Below are positions 4,181 to 28,480 of a DNA stretch of 64,000 nt, in pieces. This DNA comes from a virus: the UHGV virus genome UHGV-2111131; one strand, written 5' to 3'. The notes beneath the pieces are model-generated. The model did not search any database. It had not been told where the DNA came from and saw nothing but the letters and a program-made list of their open reading frames with translations. The first letter of the stretch is position 1, and each line of letters starts with the position of its first letter. The position numbers were made by a program, and so were the translations under genes.

Positions 4181-5028
4181 TCAGGCGTCGCTATCCAGCA
4201 ACAAATCATCTGCGCGTGTGCGATCAAACGTAGGTGTTGCTTTCACAATAGTGCCACCAGGCGTTGCGGTGATCGGGGCGCTAATCGACGTAACTCCAGT
4301 AAGCGAAGTTGTATCCGAAGTTTCAAACCAGCAGTACGCTTTTTCGGTATCAGAAATCTCGTTCAAAGTGATCATGTCGGCCTGTTCATTCACAACAACC
4401 GACAAATAGAGCGTAAGCCCATCAAACACTATATGCAGTGGCAGTAGAGGCTTTACGAACTGATTAAACTTTCTGAGAATTTCTTCTGTAATTGCGGACT
4501 GATCTATCGTGCCAGTAATACCCATTGTCCGGGNNNNNNNNNNNNNNNNNNNNNNNNNNNNNNNNNNNNNNNNNNNNAAGTCAGAAACATCTCGCCGAAT
4601 GTGCCGCCGGTAGTTTCCAGTGTGCTTTCTGGTATTAGAACTGTGCCATAGGGATGACGTTCAAGGTCCACCGGTGCATATATCGGATCCCATAAAACAG
4701 AAATACCATTAAATTCGCGGTAAATTGTCTGGTTTATAGGGCGTTCAGTCCCCTTAAAGTGAATCTCATCAAGCCGCTGTTGTAACAACATCGGAACGGA
4801 AGATGAGTTTGAGGTTCTGATAGTAAAGAACTGGCCAAGTTCATTTGTCCTAGTCTCCAGATCCTCCTTGCTCATGGAAAAAATAGACTTCCGGTTGGTA
4901 ATTCGCTCCAACCATGGGTCAACAAAGGTGTCCATCATTGACTGAACCAAATCAGCCAATGATTTATAGAGCAATGACTTTTGCTTAGCTGATGTAAGCC
5001 GATTATTAAACCAGGAACGTTGCATCAC
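4181..5028 (-). CDS. Tail/baseplate protein (position of P1 gene 16), interrupted by an assembly gap
   Basis: ORFs 4504-5028 and 4181-4525 lie on the same strand either side of a 44-nt N-run; most simply one gene whose frame is lost in the gap. Confidence 0.5.
4534..4577. other. Assembly gap (44 N)
   Basis: Run of n characters. Confidence 0.97.
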
Positions 5029-6458
5029 TCCTCCTCATACGAAATATTAAAGGTGGAGTTTTCTGTATCCAGATAAACGAAATCGTAAAAGCCGTTGGAC
5101 TCATTCCACTCGACAAATTCCAGATAAAAGTCGCGGAAATAACCCAGCGTTTCGATAAATGCCCAAACGTCTTTTTTCTTGATCAGGATGTACTTGCCGA
5201 CACCGTTCGGATCAAAGAAATTTGAGTCGCGCCCAAATTTTGTTTCCAGTGCCGACTTCAACTCATCAGTCACGTTCTCAATAGTCAGGCTTGCCGATAT
5301 CCGCCCGGTGATGGTTATCTTAAATGGTAGTTTTCTGACCTCTTTATAAGAGAATTTCTTGTTCAGTTCATTCGGTACCTTCTTAAAGGCAGTCAGGATC
5401 ATTTCTTCAAGCTCTGACTGGCTTTTATTTGGATGCCATCCTGAAATAAATATCTTATTGATATTCTGAACATTATAAGCACCATCTAATTTCTCTTGCT
5501 GGCCTTCGCCCCATGCCTTTACCCAGGACAGCCCCGGGATGTTACGAACCAGAAAATACGTATAGTCCCCGCCCCATACGACCTGATCATCATAGGCAAG
5601 GTAATATTGTGCACGGTTACGTGTGATCTCCGTTGTTTCAGCATCGGTACCTGCGGTTATAGGTGTCGTTGTCTTAACTGAAATCAAATTAGCTAAATTA
5701 GCCGCAGAATCGACAGGCGTCAGGTTTTGGCCAGCAACCAGGGTTATATCGCCGTTGGTGCACCATACCTTAAGCGTAATTGTCGAACCTTCTGGCGGTA
5801 TTTGCCCAATTAGCCCATCGCCGAATCGAACCCCCAACTGCTCGGATGGTTTATAAAACTCAACGTAGACCTGGCTTTTACTACCGGCTAACCGGAACAT
5901 AGTGCTGGAAGACCACTGCGTGGTCTTACCATCGGTCGTCACGAATACTTCCAGCTTATAGCAGACAGCAGTAAGAGCCTTTGATAACACGACTTCCAGA
6001 AATTCTTTGGCTGCCGTAACGGTATATGTCACCTCCTGGATTTCCAACTGTGCCACTTCTACCGTACCGGTGCCGTCAACCAACCTGCATACATCCATAG
6101 TCATGTAAGGGTACTGGTCGTCAGATATTAAAGGCATGTTTTTGGGGATTACCGCTGGGGCATCTTCACTTGTGGCGGTGATCTCAATCATCCCCGATGA
6201 CGGTGTTGGCTTGGTACCAACGTAACTATTCGTTTCTGCCGCTGCCAGGATAGAGGAACGCCGCGTCGCGGTCGATATAAAGCCTTCAGCCAGCGCCGCA
6301 TCGGCATACTGAAAGCACCTGTAGACAATCTGGGTAATAAACAATGTCAGCATCGAGACAAATTGAGAGCCGACAAACTTCGACCAGAATGAATCTTTCT
6401 CGACAAGCTCTTCAAACTCTGCACGAATACTGTCTTTAGTCGGTGTTGTTTTACTCAT
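5025..6458 (-). CDS. Baseplate protein (position of P1 BplA)
   Basis: 477-aa ORF, start overlaps upstream gene stop (coupled); synteny. Confidence 0.6.
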   Translation of the reverse strand: MSKTTPTKDSIRAEFEELVEKDSFWSKFVGSQFVSMLTLFITQIVYRCFQYADAALAEGFISTATRRSSILAAAETNSYVGTKPTPSSGMIEITATSEDAPAVIPKNMPLISDDQYPYMTMDVCRLVDGTGTVEVAQLEIQEVTYTVTAAKEFLEVVLSKALTAVCYKLEVFVTTDGKTTQWSSSTMFRLAGSKSQVYVEFYKPSEQLGVRFGDGLIGQIPPEGSTITLKVWCTNGDITLVAGQNLTPVDSAANLANLISVKTTTPITAGTDAETTEITRNRAQYYLAYDDQVVWGGDYTYFLVRNIPGLSWVKAWGEGQQEKLDGAYNVQNINKIFISGWHPNKSQSELEEMILTAFKKVPNELNKKFSYKEVRKLPFKITITGRISASLTIENVTDELKSALETKFGRDSNFFDPNGVGKYILIKKKDVWAFIETLGYFRDFYLEFVEWNESNGFYDFVYLDTENSTFNISYEEE

Positions 6459-6814
6459 AGCACCACGTCCTGTGTGATAGTTATATCCCTGATACGAATG
6501 GATATTTTCAACTTATCAAAAGCATCTCCCTCGGCTACTGACAAGCCAGAAATCGGTATGTCAGGTAAATCTACCGTCAGTTTTTGCAACAGCATTGCCT
6601 CAACCGCAATTTGAACATGCGACAAGTTGGTCGGTTCGTGTTTAAACTGCGGTAAAACATTGCCCCATGACGGATCTCCGTATACCTCACCCTGATAAGT
6701 GTTTAGCCACTCATATAAACGAGCGCCCCAGGCCTCCTCCTGGGACTCATACGTTTTTACGCCGGATAACTCCAGCGTCAGCAAAGGATCAATTTCGTTA
6801 TTGTTGGCCATCAA
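6455..6814 (-). CDS. Small morphogenetic protein (position of P1 PmgA)
   Basis: 119-aa ORF, overlapping stop/start with neighbours. Confidence 0.55.
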   Translation of the reverse strand: MMANNNEIDPLLTLELSGVKTYESQEEAWGARLYEWLNTYQGEVYGDPSWGNVLPQFKHEPTNLSHVQIAVEAMLLQKLTVDLPDIPISGLSVAEGDAFDKLKISIRIRDITITQDVVL

Positions 6815-9800
6815 TCAACTCTCGCGTAGTCATTCATCAACGGATCATCAATTGACAGTGGTACCGTGCGCATAACGCCCGGCTGAGGCGTGCTGACCTT
6901 TACGACAGTTCCCTGGCCTTTCGCCGAGTCTTTGGTGTGCTCTTCAATCCTGGCAAGCAATGAGGTCATCTGCGCAAACAGCCGCTTCGTTTCACCATCA
7001 AGTGAAACGGTATTATCAGCCAACTGCATTGTCGGCTTGGCACCGGAACCGCCAAGGTCACTAATAACCTGCCCGTCTATCTGCATACGACCGGTTGGTT
7101 GCTGCAAATCGTTGGCGGCAGTCGTCACCTTGGACGTGGAGGCTGGTTCAGGCGCATTATTTTTCCGCATCCCCGGCGAGTTGCGGAGTTTATCGAATAG
7201 TCCATCAATCCCCATTTGTGCGCCGAGTTGGTCAAAGTAACTTGAGTTGCTGGCCACCGGACGCGCCTCTTCAACTGGCATCGGAGTATCAACATACACA
7301 TTGCCAGCTGCTGTTGCGGTCCCCTTCCCTCGTGCACGTTCTTCGAGCGTTCCCTGAACGACTTCCCGACGCATACCCCGGCCATTCATGAATTTGTTGA
7401 CCAGATCGTTAACGCCAACAGCATTGCCGATTTTGTCTACCAGACCGCCTTTCTCAAACGGGCTATCACCAGGGGTAAACGCCAGGCCAGTAGACTGATC
7501 GATAACAGCGTTATCAGGCAGTGGTCCCCTCACTCCATATTGCGCCCCACCCTGTGCTCCTGCTCCAGGTGTATAGATTTCACCACCTAAATAGCGAGCA
7601 CGATGAGTATTGACCTTGATCGCGTACTCACGGTTTTCTTTCGATAAGTCACCTGTGCCTTTTTTCCACTTATTGATAGTGCCAAACCCAGCGTTATATG
7701 CAGTGATGGCCTCGTTTAAGTCTCCATTGGCTTGCTTCAGATACTTGCTCATGAGAAGAGCCGCAGCTTCTGCCGATTTCACAGGATCAAACGATTCACC
7801 TTCAGCTAAGCCAGTCTCTTCACGAGCAATCCCCGTGAACTGAAACATTCCCAGAGCACCGGTTTGGGATTTTGCATACGGATTACCACCAGATTCAGTT
7901 GCAGCAATCGCGTAAAGAGTGCCTTCTGGAAGACCATATTTATTCTCTAGTTCAGCAAAATACGGAGCCAACTTATCGAGATTTGCCTTACCTTCAGATC
8001 CAAGACTTCCGACTTTTACATCCAAGCGGCCATTGTTGTAGGTATCCGCAGCTTTCTGAATGTCATTCCTGGTGCCAGTGGTATTAAGCGACGATGATGA
8101 CGAGCTATTTTGACCAATAGCTTTATCAATTTTCTGCAACGCGCTATTGCCCGTTTCTACGGCATTTGCATTGATAATCTGATTCGCAGTTTCTTTAACT
8201 GTTTTATTGCTATCTTTCGCCGTGTCCAGTGCCGCATTTATCACGCGGGTAACAATATTAGTCTGTTTGGCATCGGATTCAGTTTTAGAATCAGATGTCT
8301 CCTGGTGGCTATTAACCGGAGCTTTTAACTCTGGAGCGATTTCTTTCGCATTAGCCTCGCTATTAACCGGAGCTTTTAACTCTGGAGCGATTTCTTTCGC
8401 ATTAGCCTCGCTATTAACCGGAGCTTTTAACTCTGGAGTGATTTCTTTCGCATTAGCCTCGCCGATCGGATTGGGTATTTTTGATACAATCATTGCCGCA
8501 GGGGTATTTTTAACGGCATCAACCGCTGCATCTAATGCTTTACCAGGTAAATTTTTAACCCCATCCCAAATATTACCAGCCGCCTCTTTAATGTGTTTCC
8601 CCGGGTTCTTAATGAAATCAATTGCACTATCAATTGCATCACTGAAAACCTGTTTCAGGTTATCAACAGTAAAGAAGTCTTTGATGGCATCCAGCTTTTC
8701 AAGCAGCTTATTAGATGTATCGCTAAACCATGCTGAAACAGCATCACCAATCTTTGCTGTGTAATCTTCGAACTTGGTAGAAATGGTGTCGCCAAGGTTA
8801 GAAATATATGTTTCTAAGTTGGTAATCCCACTATCAATGGCCTGGGCAATACTTTCCGTCGAAAATGATTGCAACATATTGCCGATATCCTCAAATCCAA
8901 GTGATTTGAGAACCTCACCAATGGCGCTGCTAATACCAGATACCAGTCCCCCCATATCAAGAACATTGGCTAACGTATAAGCGGCTTTTTGCTGGAATGA
9001 TGGATCTTGTCCTGATTTAAGCCCAAACGCTCGACGTTGCGCTTCTGTATCATTCCAACCGGTTACCGCATCATAAATACCTCCAGCCACTGTGCCGACT
9101 AAGGGAATTGCGCGTAACGCCCCTTTACCAACTGCCTTTAATCCAAGTTTACCTGCTGCCCGGGCAGCCAAATCTCCACCTTCATAGGCGATAGTCTTCT
9201 TGCCACCACCGCGTAGCATTCCTACAAGTTTCTTTGCCCCCAGAGCGCCAAAAGCGAGTGCTCCAGCTTTTTTCAGCATGCCACGCCCCATTAACAACGA
9301 CGCGACGCCACCGGCCCCCTTCCCTAACAGGCTAAATAGTTTGGACAGCAAGCCGCCCTTCTTTTTCCCGGTGTTTTTGGCTATCTGATCAAGGGCGCTG
9401 AGAATCTTGTCATTGCCCTCTTTAATTTCGCTGGTCTGCTCCTGAAGTTCCTGAACTGTCCGTTTTTGGGTGTTAACCTGAACGACATCGGCACTATTTT
9501 GCGATTTACGCCTAAAAAAACCTTTTCTACGGCTGTTATCGTCATTGCCACGAATCACATCGGCAATAGACTTTCTGGCACCATTAAGCGATCCACCAAC
9601 TTCTTTTGATATCCCGCCAAGCTCCTTCCCTGCTGCCCACAATGGACCAGCAACGGCATAACCTAACGCATCAACGGCACGAGTCTCTGAAGGGTTACCT
9701 ATGCCTTCAGCTACTTTTGACAGTTTTTTTAATAAACCTGATTCAGCATTTAGACGCTCATCATCCTCTTTGCGCCTGGCCTTTTCAGCACGTTCAGCAC

Positions 9801-10602
9801 GGGCATCTTCCGCTGCGGCCTTACTCCCTGACTTTCCAATAAAACGACCACGCGCATCGCGTTGGTTTTGGCTTTTTTGCGCACCGCCTTTTTGATCGAA
9901 CATTTCGCGAGCGTGTTCGGCTGCTTCGGTCCGTTGTGCCTTTATATCCTCTGGTATAGCCTTCCTGCGTCGTTTTTTACCCTTTGGTGTAGTTGATTTG
10001 GCCTGCTGTTCCTGTTGAGCAATGCCCTCCTGAACTACACGAGAAACGTCCCCTAAATTAAGCCGTTTCATTGCGTCAACAATAGGGTCTACTGATGGCG
10101 CATTGGCCACAAAGTCTGGCCGGGAATTTTCGATTGTTCGATTTAATGCCGACACACTGCGAGATACTGGGTCAACCGTTGCAACGCGTTCCCCTTTCAA
10201 ATCACGAGCGAGTTTGACCGTTTCTAACCGCTGTGCTTTAACATCCTCTGTTATTGCCTCTCTTCGTCTATTTGGGGGATTGTGCGCTGTTGGTGCAGCC
10301 TGCTGTGCACGGTTAGTGACTTTGTCCTCCCGTATACGAGAAACGTCCCCTAAATTAAGCCGTTTTATTGCGTCAACAATAGGGTCCACTGATGGCGCAT
10401 TGGTCACAAAGTCAGGACGTGAATTTTCGATTGTGCGATTTAATGCCGACACACTGCGAGAGACAGGATCAACAGTTGCAACTCGTTCCCCTTTCAAATC
10501 TTCAACAGCTTCCCGAATACCTGCAAGCTCTTCCAGCTCTTTCGCGCTGGCGGTTTCAACTGTCCTTATAACATCGTCAATATTGGCGTTTTTTCTTTCC
10601 AT
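6811..10602 (-). CDS. sit: Sit-like injection protein with lytic transglycosylase domain (tape-measure-like)
   Basis: 1263 aa; SLT motif LYAIAATESGGNPYAKSQTGALGMFQF; N-terminal duplicated ~57-aa unit (ERVATVDPVSRSVSALNRTIENSRPDFV...) and 3 x 17-aa NAKEIAPELKAPVNSEA repeats. Confidence 0.85.
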   Translation of the reverse strand: MERKNANIDDVIRTVETASAKELEELAGIREAVEDLKGERVATVDPVSRSVSALNRTIENSRPDFVTNAPSVDPIVDAIKRLNLGDVSRIREDKVTNRAQQAAPTAHNPPNRRREAITEDVKAQRLETVKLARDLKGERVATVDPVSRSVSALNRTIENSRPDFVANAPSVDPIVDAMKRLNLGDVSRVVQEGIAQQEQQAKSTTPKGKKRRRKAIPEDIKAQRTEAAEHAREMFDQKGGAQKSQNQRDARGRFIGKSGSKAAAEDARAERAEKARRKEDDERLNAESGLLKKLSKVAEGIGNPSETRAVDALGYAVAGPLWAAGKELGGISKEVGGSLNGARKSIADVIRGNDDNSRRKGFFRRKSQNSADVVQVNTQKRTVQELQEQTSEIKEGNDKILSALDQIAKNTGKKKGGLLSKLFSLLGKGAGGVASLLMGRGMLKKAGALAFGALGAKKLVGMLRGGGKKTIAYEGGDLAARAAGKLGLKAVGKGALRAIPLVGTVAGGIYDAVTGWNDTEAQRRAFGLKSGQDPSFQQKAAYTLANVLDMGGLVSGISSAIGEVLKSLGFEDIGNMLQSFSTESIAQAIDSGITNLETYISNLGDTISTKFEDYTAKIGDAVSAWFSDTSNKLLEKLDAIKDFFTVDNLKQVFSDAIDSAIDFIKNPGKHIKEAAGNIWDGVKNLPGKALDAAVDAVKNTPAAMIVSKIPNPIGEANAKEITPELKAPVNSEANAKEIAPELKAPVNSEANAKEIAPELKAPVNSHQETSDSKTESDAKQTNIVTRVINAALDTAKDSNKTVKETANQIINANAVETGNSALQKIDKAIGQNSSSSSSLNTTGTRNDIQKAADTYNNGRLDVKVGSLGSEGKANLDKLAPYFAELENKYGLPEGTLYAIAATESGGNPYAKSQTGALGMFQFTGIAREETGLAEGESFDPVKSAEAAALLMSKYLKQANGDLNEAITAYNAGFGTINKWKKGTGDLSKENREYAIKVNTHRARYLGGEIYTPGAGAQGGAQYGVRGPLPDNAVIDQSTGLAFTPGDSPFEKGGLVDKIGNAVGVNDLVNKFMNGRGMRREVVQGTLEERARGKGTATAAGNVYVDTPMPVEEARPVASNSSYFDQLGAQMGIDGLFDKLRNSPGMRKNNAPEPASTSKVTTAANDLQQPTGRMQIDGQVISDLGGSGAKPTMQLADNTVSLDGETKRLFAQMTSLLARIEEHTKDSAKGQGTVVKVSTPQPGVMRTVPLSIDDPLMNDYARVD
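8311..8463. repeat. 3 x 51-bp perfect/near-perfect tandem repeat inside sit
   Basis: Unit attaaccggagcttttaactctggagcgatttctttcgcattagcctcgct repeated three times, in frame. Confidence 0.9.
10036..10500. repeat. Two ~170-bp diverged direct repeats ~295 bp apart inside sit
   Basis: Copies at about 10036-10205 and 10331-10500 encode the duplicated N-terminal Sit unit. Confidence 0.8.
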
Positions 10603-10683
10603 GATCTTATCGCCTACCGTTTCGGTTTAAGTTTTTCTTCCAGTTTCTCCAACAGGAAAAACGCATAGGATTCAGTAAGCCTT

Positions 10684-11565
10684 TCAGCGTCCTGAATCGG
10701 TATACCCCCATACAAAACCAGGTTGGACACTAAGGTCTGATAGCTTTTCAATCCCCACCTGTGGAATGAAGTCGGTAGCCCGAAAGGGCACCCACAGACG
10801 GGTATATGCACCCTCTGTGGACTCCTTTTTATCCTGATTTGGGCATTTATGCGGCGGGAGACGAAGACGCATTTCACCTTTATCGATGTAGCACGGTAAA
10901 CCATGTTCGAGCTTTTCATGAGCCAGTCGGATGTGTGCCGCCAGCTTCATAAATTCAGTATCAATGGCCATCCGTTTAATCGTTTCATAACGACGCTCAG
11001 CCTGATCTTCACGAGTACCGCTAACATCGTTATAAAGCTCACACTGATAAGCGAATTCCCAAAAACGCAAATCAACGATCGCTTCTTTGAATTCCGCGTC
11101 GTCTTCAGGTGGCAATGCTGCACGGCGCATCTCCAGCATTTCCATTGCCCAACCATCAAGCGGCACGATACGCCATTGATAAGGTACTCCCTCTACAGAC
11201 ACCTCAATATCGTCAATGAAAGGTTCCACTTCCAGGACCTGGATATCTTCAGCCAGAGCATTCATATCGCAATCGTAATAATGCTCTTTACCGCAATGTT
11301 TACAGGTGTAGGTGAATGTCTCGACCGGTGTTTCACGGGAGCCGGTAAATATCCACCATAACGCGGTAATCCGGTCCTGCGCCGTCCATGTCAGGGGATC
11401 ATGTTTCGCGGGTTCAGCCAGCAAGGCTTTTAAATACGCCGTTGTCTGTTGTTCTTGTTCCTCCGGTGTTATCGAGTTGAAACGCATCGCATCAGCAATA
11501 TTTGGCTGACGGAACTGGATCAATTCAGTTGGCCGCGATGGTAGCGGGAAAAGAGGTAAAAGCAT
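10684..11565 (-). CDS. Morphogenetic protein (position of P1 PmgB)
   Basis: 293-aa ORF with several Cys/His pairs (CKHCGKEHYYDC). Confidence 0.6.
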   Translation of the reverse strand: MLLPLFPLPSRPTELIQFRQPNIADAMRFNSITPEEQEQQTTAYLKALLAEPAKHDPLTWTAQDRITALWWIFTGSRETPVETFTYTCKHCGKEHYYDCDMNALAEDIQVLEVEPFIDDIEVSVEGVPYQWRIVPLDGWAMEMLEMRRAALPPEDDAEFKEAIVDLRFWEFAYQCELYNDVSGTREDQAERRYETIKRMAIDTEFMKLAAHIRLAHEKLEHGLPCYIDKGEMRLRLPPHKCPNQDKKESTEGAYTRLWVPFRATDFIPQVGIEKLSDLSVQPGFVWGYTDSGR

Positions 11566-14128: not shown

Positions 14129-14299
14129 GTATTTTTAAGTCGCGAATGCTATCTTTTCGCATCATATTGACCTTTTAATCGTTCAGGCTTATAGTTCCGC
14201 CGTCGTAGCAAATTCTGCGACCGGGTTTAGCAGCCTGAATGATTGTGCGGACAGCCGCAGATATCCGATATTGCGGTATTTTTGTGTCCGTAAAACCGC

Positions 14300-14372
14300 G
14301 TTACGCCCAAATTATGGTGGGGCGTGATGGGGAGGCTTCGGCCTGCTGGTTTCACAATCGCCAGTCTGCTAA
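14300..14372 (+). ncRNA. c4: c4-like antisense RNA of immI (approximate bounds)
   Basis: TCACAATC (14352-14359) complements GATTGTGA overlapping the icd RBS (14425-14432); CGTGATGGGG (14323-14332) complements CCCCGTCACG (14373-14382) with one G-U. Confidence 0.4.
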
Positions 14373-14442
14373 CCCCGTCACGTCCTGCCACCTGTTTAGC
14401 AGCGGGTAGCAGGTTGTTAAACCTGATTGTGAGGCCGTAACT

Positions 14443-17839: not shown

Positions 17840-17899
17840 TACAATCGTTGCGGGTGCTTGAGGCTATCTGCTTCAGGCATTACCCGAAAAGCAGATAGA

Positions 17900-18020
17900 A
17901 GAAAGCCCCAGATAACATTACGCGTCCTGCAAGACGCTTAACATTAATCTGAGGCCATATCTATGCTTAGCATACGTAGATTAGCCTCTTACCGACCAAA
18001 AGGTCAAGGAGAAGCAGGCT
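17900..18020 (-). ncRNA. Expected position of a Sok-like antisense RNA (not delimited)
   Basis: Inference from hok/mok architecture only; no promoter or terminator identified. Confidence 0.2.
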
Positions 18021-18169
18021 ATGAAGCAGCAAAAAGCGATGTTAATCGCTCTGATCGTCATCTGTTTAACCGTCATTGTGACGGCACTGGTAACGAGGAA
18101 AGACCTCTGCGAGGTACGAATCCGAACCGGCCAGACGGAGGTCACTGTCTTCACAGCCTACGAATCTGA
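17963..18169 (+). CDS. mok-like overlapping reading frame
   Basis: 68-aa ORF, out of frame with and almost fully overlapping the hok-like ORF. Confidence 0.4.
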   Translation: MLSIRRLASYRPKGQGEAGYEAAKSDVNRSDRHLFNRHCDGTGNEERPLRGTNPNRPDGGHCLHSLRI

Positions 18170-28224: not shown

Positions 28225-28480
28225 TGGCTGTTATCAACAGCTGTGAATATTCAGGCTCTAAAATCGCTTACAGTCAATGTTTCTGTCGCGTATAGTCAAC
28301 AATAAATCGCGTGCAGTCAACAATAAATCGTGCACAGTCAACATAAAATCGCGTATAGTCAATGTTGATCCCATTTCAAGCCAGTAATGACGCGGCTTAC
28401 AGCGATCCGGGATCTTCTTTGGATCTTCCTAGGTTCTCTTTAGGATCTGTTTATTGGATCTATGCTGTGGATAAGTTGAA
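28225..28480. other. Plasmid origin oriR: DnaA boxes, incC iterons, GATC cluster
   Basis: DnaA-box-like TTATCAACA (28231) and TGTGGATAA (28466); 4-5 iterons in 21-bp register (28270-28365); six GATC in about 95 bp (28367-28460). Confidence 0.6.

Follow-up and report, generated by a model that had tools for sequence, protein, structure and literature searches.

Variable in-frame repeats in Sit, the predicted tape measure protein of P1-like phage-plasmids

Introduction

P1 is a standard phage for transduction, and related phage-plasmids, which carry resistance genes, are widespread. The Sit protein of P1 and P7 is said to have been described, by Lehnherr in 1998 and by Lobocka in 2004, as a structural injection transglycosylase. 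P1 Sit was later found in virions by mass spectrometry and assigned as the tail tape measure protein, the grounds being this detection, the size of the protein and its helical N-terminal two thirds (PMC9024508, Gonzales 2022). A 2026 cryo-electron microscopy (cryo-EM) study of P1 also names Sit as the tape measure; the protein is not resolved in the tail lumen (PMC12810830). Here we describe what we read as a long allele of sit in UHGV-2111131, a P1-like phage-plasmid. The window is the whole stretch of 64,000 nucleotides (nt) of this genome that was analysed, and positions are given on its scale.

In lambda gpH (Katsura and Hendrix) and T4 gp29 (Abuladze 1994), a long protein inside the tail tube sets by its length the length of the tail, and in-frame duplications or deletions made in it alter the tail proportionally (cited in PMC13585406). 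Those length changes were engineered, whereas the sit series described below exists in nature, its alleles segregating within a single phage group. We found no sequence similarity of Sit to either protein, the only matches being to SLT-related families and structures. The fusion of a ruler with a cell-wall hydrolase has counterparts in T5 pb2 (Boulanger 2008) and TM4 Tmp (Piuri and Hatfull 2006), a comparison made previously for P1 (PMC9024508), but these proteins involve other enzyme families and morphotypes and show no homology outside the SLT domain. In siphophages, in-frame units vary the length of the tape measure (Belcaid 2011; for TP901-1, Pedersen 2000), and a 2026 survey reports that the tape measures of contractile-tailed phages mostly lack tandem repeats (PMC13585406). 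Unlike the siphophage repeats, sit is a myophage case, in which copy number varies among near-identical genomes. We found no description of sit length variation in P1-like elements in the literature, and PMC9603915 makes no mention of the gene. What we report is a natural allelic series of a known kind of variation, and its mechanism is not new.

Results

Two in-frame repeats account for the length of Sit

In nucleotides, the gene is 96-98% identical to sit of P1, P7, RCS47, JL22 and other punaviruses across 96-97% of its length. Its product shows, over the full length, 96% identity to P1 Sit and 98% to P7 Sit. PHROG matches were to phrog_2533, to the P1-type Sit and to tail/injection transglycosylase families. 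A first-pass annotation, made from the letters of the window, had called a Sit of 1263 amino acids (aa) at 6811-10602, longer than the 1140 aa that it gave for P1. Both statements were right, as the open reading frame (ORF) is confirmed and identified as a P1-type sit by the 96-98% identity and the SLT domain, and the P1 record gives 1140 aa.

We accounted for the length difference with a five-way protein alignment (window, P1, P7, SJ46 and phi456). The window Sit is colinear with those of P1 and P7, with gaps only at two repeat sites and at a 10-aa indel in the SLT domain. Relative to P7 Sit (1130 aa), the sum is 1130 + 99 + 34 = 1263 aa, and relative to P1 Sit (1140 aa) it is 1140 - 10 + 99 + 34 = 1263 aa. 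The gene is the same as in P1 and P7 and lies, as there, between pmgB and pmgA; the three proteins have the SLT domain and the C-terminal part in common. They differ in that the window Sit is 123 aa longer than that of P1 and 133 aa longer than that of P7, has a second 99-aa module and has three 17-aa units instead of one (Table 1).

The shorter repeat was found by Tandem Repeats Finder as 3.0 copies of a unit of 51 base pairs (bp) at 8308-8462 (99% matches, score 303). A repeat search of the window gave 98-100% identity between the three copies. The 17-aa consensus is EANAKEI(T/A)PELKAPVNS, and the array sits before the SLT domain. The first-pass annotation had placed this array at 8311-8463, 3 nt away from its in-frame position. 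For the longer repeat, the search returned a direct repeat of 212 nt with 84% identity and a spacing of 297 nt, and the alignment with the reference proteins revealed that the repeat in fact has a unit of 297 bp (99 aa), of which two copies, A and B, stand head to tail directly after a conserved N-terminal head of 34 aa. The two diverged repeats of ~170 bp that had been annotated at 10036-10500 are therefore real, but they correspond only to the conserved halves of this unit. Copy B has 93-94% nucleotide identity with the one unit that P1 and P7 possess, copies A and B are 78.5% identical overall, and phi456 Sit has copy A. Because of the perfect 102-bp repeat inside the array and the in-frame nature of the 297-bp unit, the repeats are not a matter of chance.

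A third length polymorphism is a 10-aa insert site between aa 912 and 913 (window 7866/7867), inside the SLT domain and just after the predicted catalytic Glu-Ser motif (E903 and S904, invariant in the five-way alignment). The insert reads TLTRSPNGKL in P1 and PLTRSPDGKL in others. It is missing from the window and from P7, and is present in P1 and in 55 of 120 related protein clusters. These are the 120 best-matching database entries, each the representative of a 90% cluster; they are ranked by score, so counts among them are not frequencies. The indels of these entries relative to the window are only those of the 17-aa array and of the 10-aa site, plus five singletons of 2-5 aa.

Copy number varies among plasmids and protein clusters

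A match to sit was found in 493 records of the plasmid collection, and the lengths of the matching spans form a series (3393, 3444, 3690, 3720, 3741, 3792, 3822 and ~4088 bp). We counted the 51-bp units in PLSDB with a query of 102 bp taken from inside the array (E < 1e-25). At least two units are present in 37 plasmids and at least three in 11, one of which, CP063718.1, carries four and encodes a Sit of 1280 aa. The duplication was counted with a 200-bp query spanning the junction between the end of A and the start of B, for which a full-length match was required. Of 378 plasmids, 137 have this junction, and their hosts include Escherichia coli, Shigella flexneri and Salmonella enterica. A synthetic query joining the end of A to the sequence downstream of B gave no match at E < 1e-60, i.e. 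no plasmid allele with module A alone.

Among the 120 protein clusters, the 17-aa unit is found once in 60, twice in 8, three times in 24, four times in 26 and five times in 2. There are at least 13 distinct arrangements, in proteins of 1224-1307 aa, and the array types include T-A, A-A, T-A-A, T-A-T, T-AK-T, T-A-A-T, T-A-A-A-T and others. Arrays of two units exist in a Sit of 1246 aa that has the duplication (T-A) as well as in one of 1147 aa that does not (A-A). Intact alleles range from 1124 to 1307 aa. The array thus has head-to-tail, near-identical units of 51 bp (17 codons) whose copy number varies among close relatives, as expected of an in-frame minisatellite. The suggestion of the first-pass annotation that these repeats are prone to recombination and vary the length of the protein is supported by the range of copies (1-5 for the 51-bp unit, 1-3 for the 297-bp unit), as well as by the hybrid unit and the conversion patches described below.

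We considered whether sit might be a phase-variable (on/off) locus and rejected this, since both units are multiples of 3 and each change in copy number keeps the protein in frame. The only frameshifted sit alleles carry a 1-nt deletion beside a homopolymer run, unrelated to the repeats.

A young array, an old duplication and exchange between copies

The variety of the 51-bp arrays points to repeated gains and losses, and the array appears to be young and minisatellite-like. The 297-bp duplication has a different history. Over codons 1-55 (165 nt), copies A and B are 92.7% identical in nucleotides, with 10 synonymous and 2 non-synonymous differences (synonymous divergence dS 0.28, non-synonymous divergence dN 0.017). 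Over codons 56-99 (132 nt) the identity is 60.6% (dS 0.94, dN 0.47). Purifying selection is strong on the first half of the module (dN/dS ~0.06), and constraint on the second half is weak (dN/dS ~0.5). Judging from these divergences, the duplication is old and not a recent expansion. Hence, the repeat expansions proposed in the first-pass annotation describe the young array, but not the duplication, which is an old and common allele.

The 5' end of the gene also differs in age from the rest. Between aa 233 and 450, the window is close to P1 or P7 (dS ~0.05, dN 0.002). Against P1, P7 or SJ46, dS is 0.20-0.26 in the N-terminal 34 codons (dN 0) and 0.25-0.30 in the first half of the module (dN 0.017-0.029). 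In the same 5' part the values against phi456 are 0-0.02 for dS and 0 for dN, and downstream of it dS rises to 0.11. Because phi456 is near-identical to the window in this part and diverged downstream, we infer that the 5' ~700 nt with two modules are an old haplotype of their own, which is passed by recombination from one sit background to another. The Sit of phi456 (OR339795, 1231 aa) shares this haplotype across the N-terminus and unit B, but it has a single divergent 17-aa segment and an SJ46-like central region.

Some alleles bear signatures of exchange between the copies. In the three-module allele (pEC15-3, pXH987), the middle unit has a B-type first half and an A-type second half, a hybrid as expected from unequal crossing-over of B with A. 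In three plasmids, unit A contains a patch of B type (diagnostic sites 33-39). In P1, P7 and SJ46, the first six diagnostic sites of the single unit (nt 18-66) are of A type and the later ones of B type, so that this unit resembles the reciprocal deletion product. Conversion or ancestral states could also explain it. As a corollary of the broader proposal made in the Discussion, the Sit of these three phages, with its one module, could have arisen by contraction from an ancestor with two, since a unit that is A-type for its first ~66 nt and then B-type is what an unequal A x B crossover predicts.

Three modules are carried by four Hangzhou plasmids, two of which (NZ_CP060921.1 and NZ_CP102674.1) were read and are identical across sit. 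The three-module sit has a 1-nt deletion of G at gene nt 1081, in AAAAGGTTTTTTT, beside a homopolymer run, and its ORF ends at aa 505. This deletion may be a homopolymer sequencing error or may mark a real pseudogene. A protein search for the three-module Sit gave only truncated or partial proteins; if intact, this form would possibly give a Sit of ~1362 aa. The record NZ_CP060916.1, from the same source as the Hangzhou plasmids, is likewise 1 nt short in sit.

The repeated segments are specific to the P1 group

Pfam gave nothing above noise in the two repeat units, and NCBIfam and the PDB sequences, queried with the full-length Sit, matched the SLT domain only (in the PDB, MltC-type enzymes). 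With the same query, PHROGs gave no named match for the region of the 99-aa unit. An exhaustive HMMER search with aa 134-433 against 1.84 billion representative proteins matched only 17 clusters. Self-BLAST of 10 distant Sit representatives revealed no internal repeats, and the distant full-length relatives measure 1081-1367 aa. Since these relatives are without internal repeats, the 99-aa and 17-aa modules seem to be specific to the P1 group. In place of the 99-aa module, the distant relatives have a hypervariable, charged, low-complexity spacer, with the conserved N-terminal head on one side and the motif RDxxGRF, likewise conserved, on the other. Relatives of only 25-35% identity still keep a short motif, D..V(P)RSV.

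Single-sequence AlphaFold2 models, of low confidence and used here for a coarse reading of helix and coil only, consist mostly of helices in aa 1-400 and aa 600-706, with a mean predicted local distance difference test score (pLDDT) of only 57 and 44, respectively. In the model of aa 1-400, the helices are broken inside each 99-aa unit, and the pLDDT is below 50 at aa 38-47, 62-75, 89-114, 136-146, 161-172 and 199-213. In the model of aa 600-1000, the 17-aa array lies in a coil of 66 residues (aa 707-772, pLDDT ~30) flanked by helices. Two ORFs on the + strand overlap the repeats (8207-8764 and 10103-10630). They have no Pfam or PHROG match, and we took them as by-products of stop-free repeated sequence.

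Neighbouring genes and other elements of the window

The order of the genes in the window, pmgB-sit-pmgA-bplA, is that of P1 (Table 1). PmgB has been proposed as a tape measure chaperone and PmgA given a role in the baseplate wedge (PMC9024508). The position of sit between tail chaperone and baseplate genes, seen in the ORFs of the window and in the annotation of P1, fits a tape measure. So does the composition of the Gly/Ala/Leu/Lys-rich stretch, which is typical of tape measure proteins and may have a corresponding role. In RefSeq, BplA of P1-like plasmids is labelled 'bleomycin hydrolase' (WP_029487598.1), which conflicts with the annotation of P1 and with PMC9024508 and is probably a mis-annotation. 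In the records of phages 673R5 (ON470615.2) and 813R1 (ON470617.2), sit is broken into several short 'hypothetical protein' coding sequences, probably as a result of frameshift errors in these records.

Table 1. Features of the sit region.
Feature	Position	Strand	Description
pmgB	10684..11565	-	293 aa; directly upstream of sit; phrog_1854 'PmgB-like', E = 1e-154
sit coding sequence	6811..10602	-	1263-aa ORF; P1-family tape measure protein (predicted) with lytic transglycosylase domain
99-aa module, copy A	10204..10500	-	aa 35-133; extra copy; gap here in P1, P7 and SJ46
Conserved half of copy A	10336..10500	-	codons 1-55: DLKGERVATVDPVSRSVSALNRTIENSRPDFVTNAPSVDPIVDAIKRLNLGDVSR
99-aa module, copy B	9907..10203	-	aa 134-232; counterpart of the single P1/P7 module
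Conserved half of copy B	10039..10203	-	codons 1-55
Gly/Ala/Leu/Lys-rich hydrophobic stretch	9073..9360	-	~aa 415-510; read from sequence and hydropathy table
51-bp (17-aa) array, x3	8308..8460	-	aa 715-765; order T-A-A: EANAKEITPELKAPVNS, then EANAKEIAPELKAPVNS twice
SLT lytic transglycosylase domain	7633..7962	-	aa 881-990; Pfam PF01464, E = 1.9e-27; Glu903 in ATES motif
pmgA	6455..6814	-	119 aa; overlaps sit stop codon; phrog_1896; T4 gp25-like baseplate wedge protein
bplA counterpart	5025-6458		477 aa; downstream of pmgA; P1 gene order

The window has other repeats. A tandem repeat of 120 bp x 2.4 (85% identity, 1515-1799, - strand) lies downstream of bplA in a long frame that runs off the start of the window. 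It encodes 40-aa units GN.STATKLQT.RTIGGVSFDGSANIDLPGVNK.GNQSTT, and the frame is presumably the tail-fibre gene S. A repeat of 21 bp x 3.7 at 28286-28362 (82% matches), TCGCGTACAGTCAACAATAAA, may be an iteron-like array. Among RNA elements, a sok antitoxin RNA (Rfam RF01794, 114.9 bits) at 17852-18026 (+) points to a toxin-antitoxin locus of hok/sok type on this phage-plasmid. A C4 antisense RNA (RF01695) with its a1/b1 target (RF03163) at 14189-14395 (+) corresponds to the immI immunity region of P1 type. Three tRNA genes, at 34917-35070 and 36502-36577 (+), are Asn-GTT, Thr-TGT and one with a CAT anticodon.

Discussion

Replication slippage or unequal exchange alters the number of copies in tandem repeats of 51 bp, and the patterns described above suggest that the 17-aa units of Sit would be gained and lost in the same manner. 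The two-module 5' haplotype would move between sit backgrounds by homologous recombination. Its conserved 165-nt halves may still exchange by gene conversion and unequal crossing-over, occasionally giving three modules. The two-module allele is compatible with a working phage, as phi456 forms particles and plaques.

Since Sit is assigned as the tail tape measure, the relevant phenotype would be the length of the tail. The P1 tail measures 245 nm overall in cryo-EM, with a sheath of 210 nm and 53 rings with a rise of 40 Å (PMC10304247), i.e. ~1.86 Å per Sit residue (53 rings x 40 Å over 1140 aa), against 1.5 Å for a pure helix. With 1.5-1.86 Å for each residue, a Sit that exceeds that of P1 by 123 aa predicts a gain of 18-23 nm, or ~5 rings; for 123-133 extra residues, ~18-25 nm and again ~5 tube/sheath rings would be added to the 53 of P1. 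The gain would be larger if the repeats were fully extended, and close to zero if they were compacted in the lumen of 40 Å, in which case the tail would keep its length and only the spacing between the N-terminal motif and the SLT domain would be altered. We see about an even chance that the tail of a phage with the long allele is measurably longer. The best explanation as a whole, i.e. that this gene is the sit of a P1-like (punavirus) phage-plasmid in a long allele with two in-frame repeat sites and a possible consequence for tail length, seems to us somewhat more probable than that. A broader proposal is tentative, and we hold it with clearly less than even confidence. P1-like phage-plasmids would carry stepwise, natural alleles of the tape measure whose tail lengths differ in whole rings, generated continually by the minisatellite and the two-module cassette, and possibly selected to match the thickness of the host envelope (O-antigen, capsule).

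Several points weigh against such a ruler. The repeats are rich in proline (6-7 per 99-aa unit and 2 per 17-aa unit), and because of this, of their predicted partly or wholly non-helical state and of pLDDT values below 50, they may not act as a rigid ruler of 1.5 Å per residue. The hypervariability of the matching region in distant relatives suggests that the length of the module is weakly constrained. No isolated phage in the phage collection has at least two 17-aa units, and the viability of such alleles is judged only from their intact ORFs. Finally, the reported tail lengths of P1-like phages disagree, with 120 nm (PMC9024508), 140 nm for P1-CTX (PMC11117986) and 245 nm in cryo-EM (PMC10304247), and the argument that ~750 helical residues match the tail (PMC9024508) rests on the 120-nm figure. 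These measurements are too inconsistent to decide the question.

Much of this evidence would also be expected if the length polymorphism were neutral, the repeats being disordered linkers that are compact in the lumen of 40 Å, so that tail length and infectivity do not change. The proline content, the predicted coil and broken helices, the hypervariable N-proximal region of distant relatives (in length as well as in sequence), the weak constraint on the second half of the 99-aa unit and the coexistence of many array variants with no obvious lineage pattern all speak for this explanation. However, the strong constraint on the first half of the module does not suit a featureless spacer, and the ratio of 1.86 Å per residue in P1 exceeds the helical value, implying that non-helical parts of Sit count towards length. 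Moreover, engineered in-frame duplications lengthen tails in lambda gpH, T4 gp29 and TP901-1 proportionally to the residues added (Katsura and Abuladze, cited in PMC13585406). We regard neutrality as rather unlikely. The same constrained half raises another explanation, in which its 55 aa, with the PVSRSV motif, form a docking module for e.g. PmgB, the terminator gp24 or the end of the DNA, and in which the duplication alters valency and not a ruler. This would agree with the excess of synonymous differences between the copies (10 versus 2 non-synonymous), with the persistence of the D..V(P)RSV motif at 25-35% identity and with the position of the module next to the conserved N-terminal head of the tape measure. 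Yet the unit has no domain known to Pfam and no named match in NCBIfam, the PDB sequences or PHROGs, P1, P7 and SJ46 work with one copy, and the synonymous bias could predate the joining of the copies. We give docking little credence.

It is more improbable still that the repeat counts of the window were collapsed or inflated by assembly. The exact protein of the window is on record from a single 91-kb contig (JGI/ENA/GEM sources), and units 2 and 3 of the array are identical, forming a perfect repeat of 102 bp that short reads can miscount. Nevertheless, both the T-A-A array (identical in NZ_CP010173.1, a closed plasmid) and the duplication are also found in closed plasmids of unrelated host and country, 1263-aa proteins were deposited from several NCBI isolates, and the 297-bp copies, being 78.5% identical, cannot collapse or inflate in assembly. 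As the records span many laboratories, hosts and countries and include many closed plasmids, the repeat polymorphism of sit is not an assembly artefact.

The variation in sit is of practical and biological interest. Sit length is a simple typing marker for P1-like plasmids, and the array is a site where short-read assemblies may miscount. With 53 rings, the P1 tail is unusually long for the contractile type, and cryo-EM maps do not resolve its tape measure. The natural sit alleles, which differ in steps of 17, 99 and 10 aa, allow the ruler to be tested in a very long contractile tail without engineering. They also address how many residues correspond to a ring and whether flexible, proline-rich segments count towards the length that is measured.

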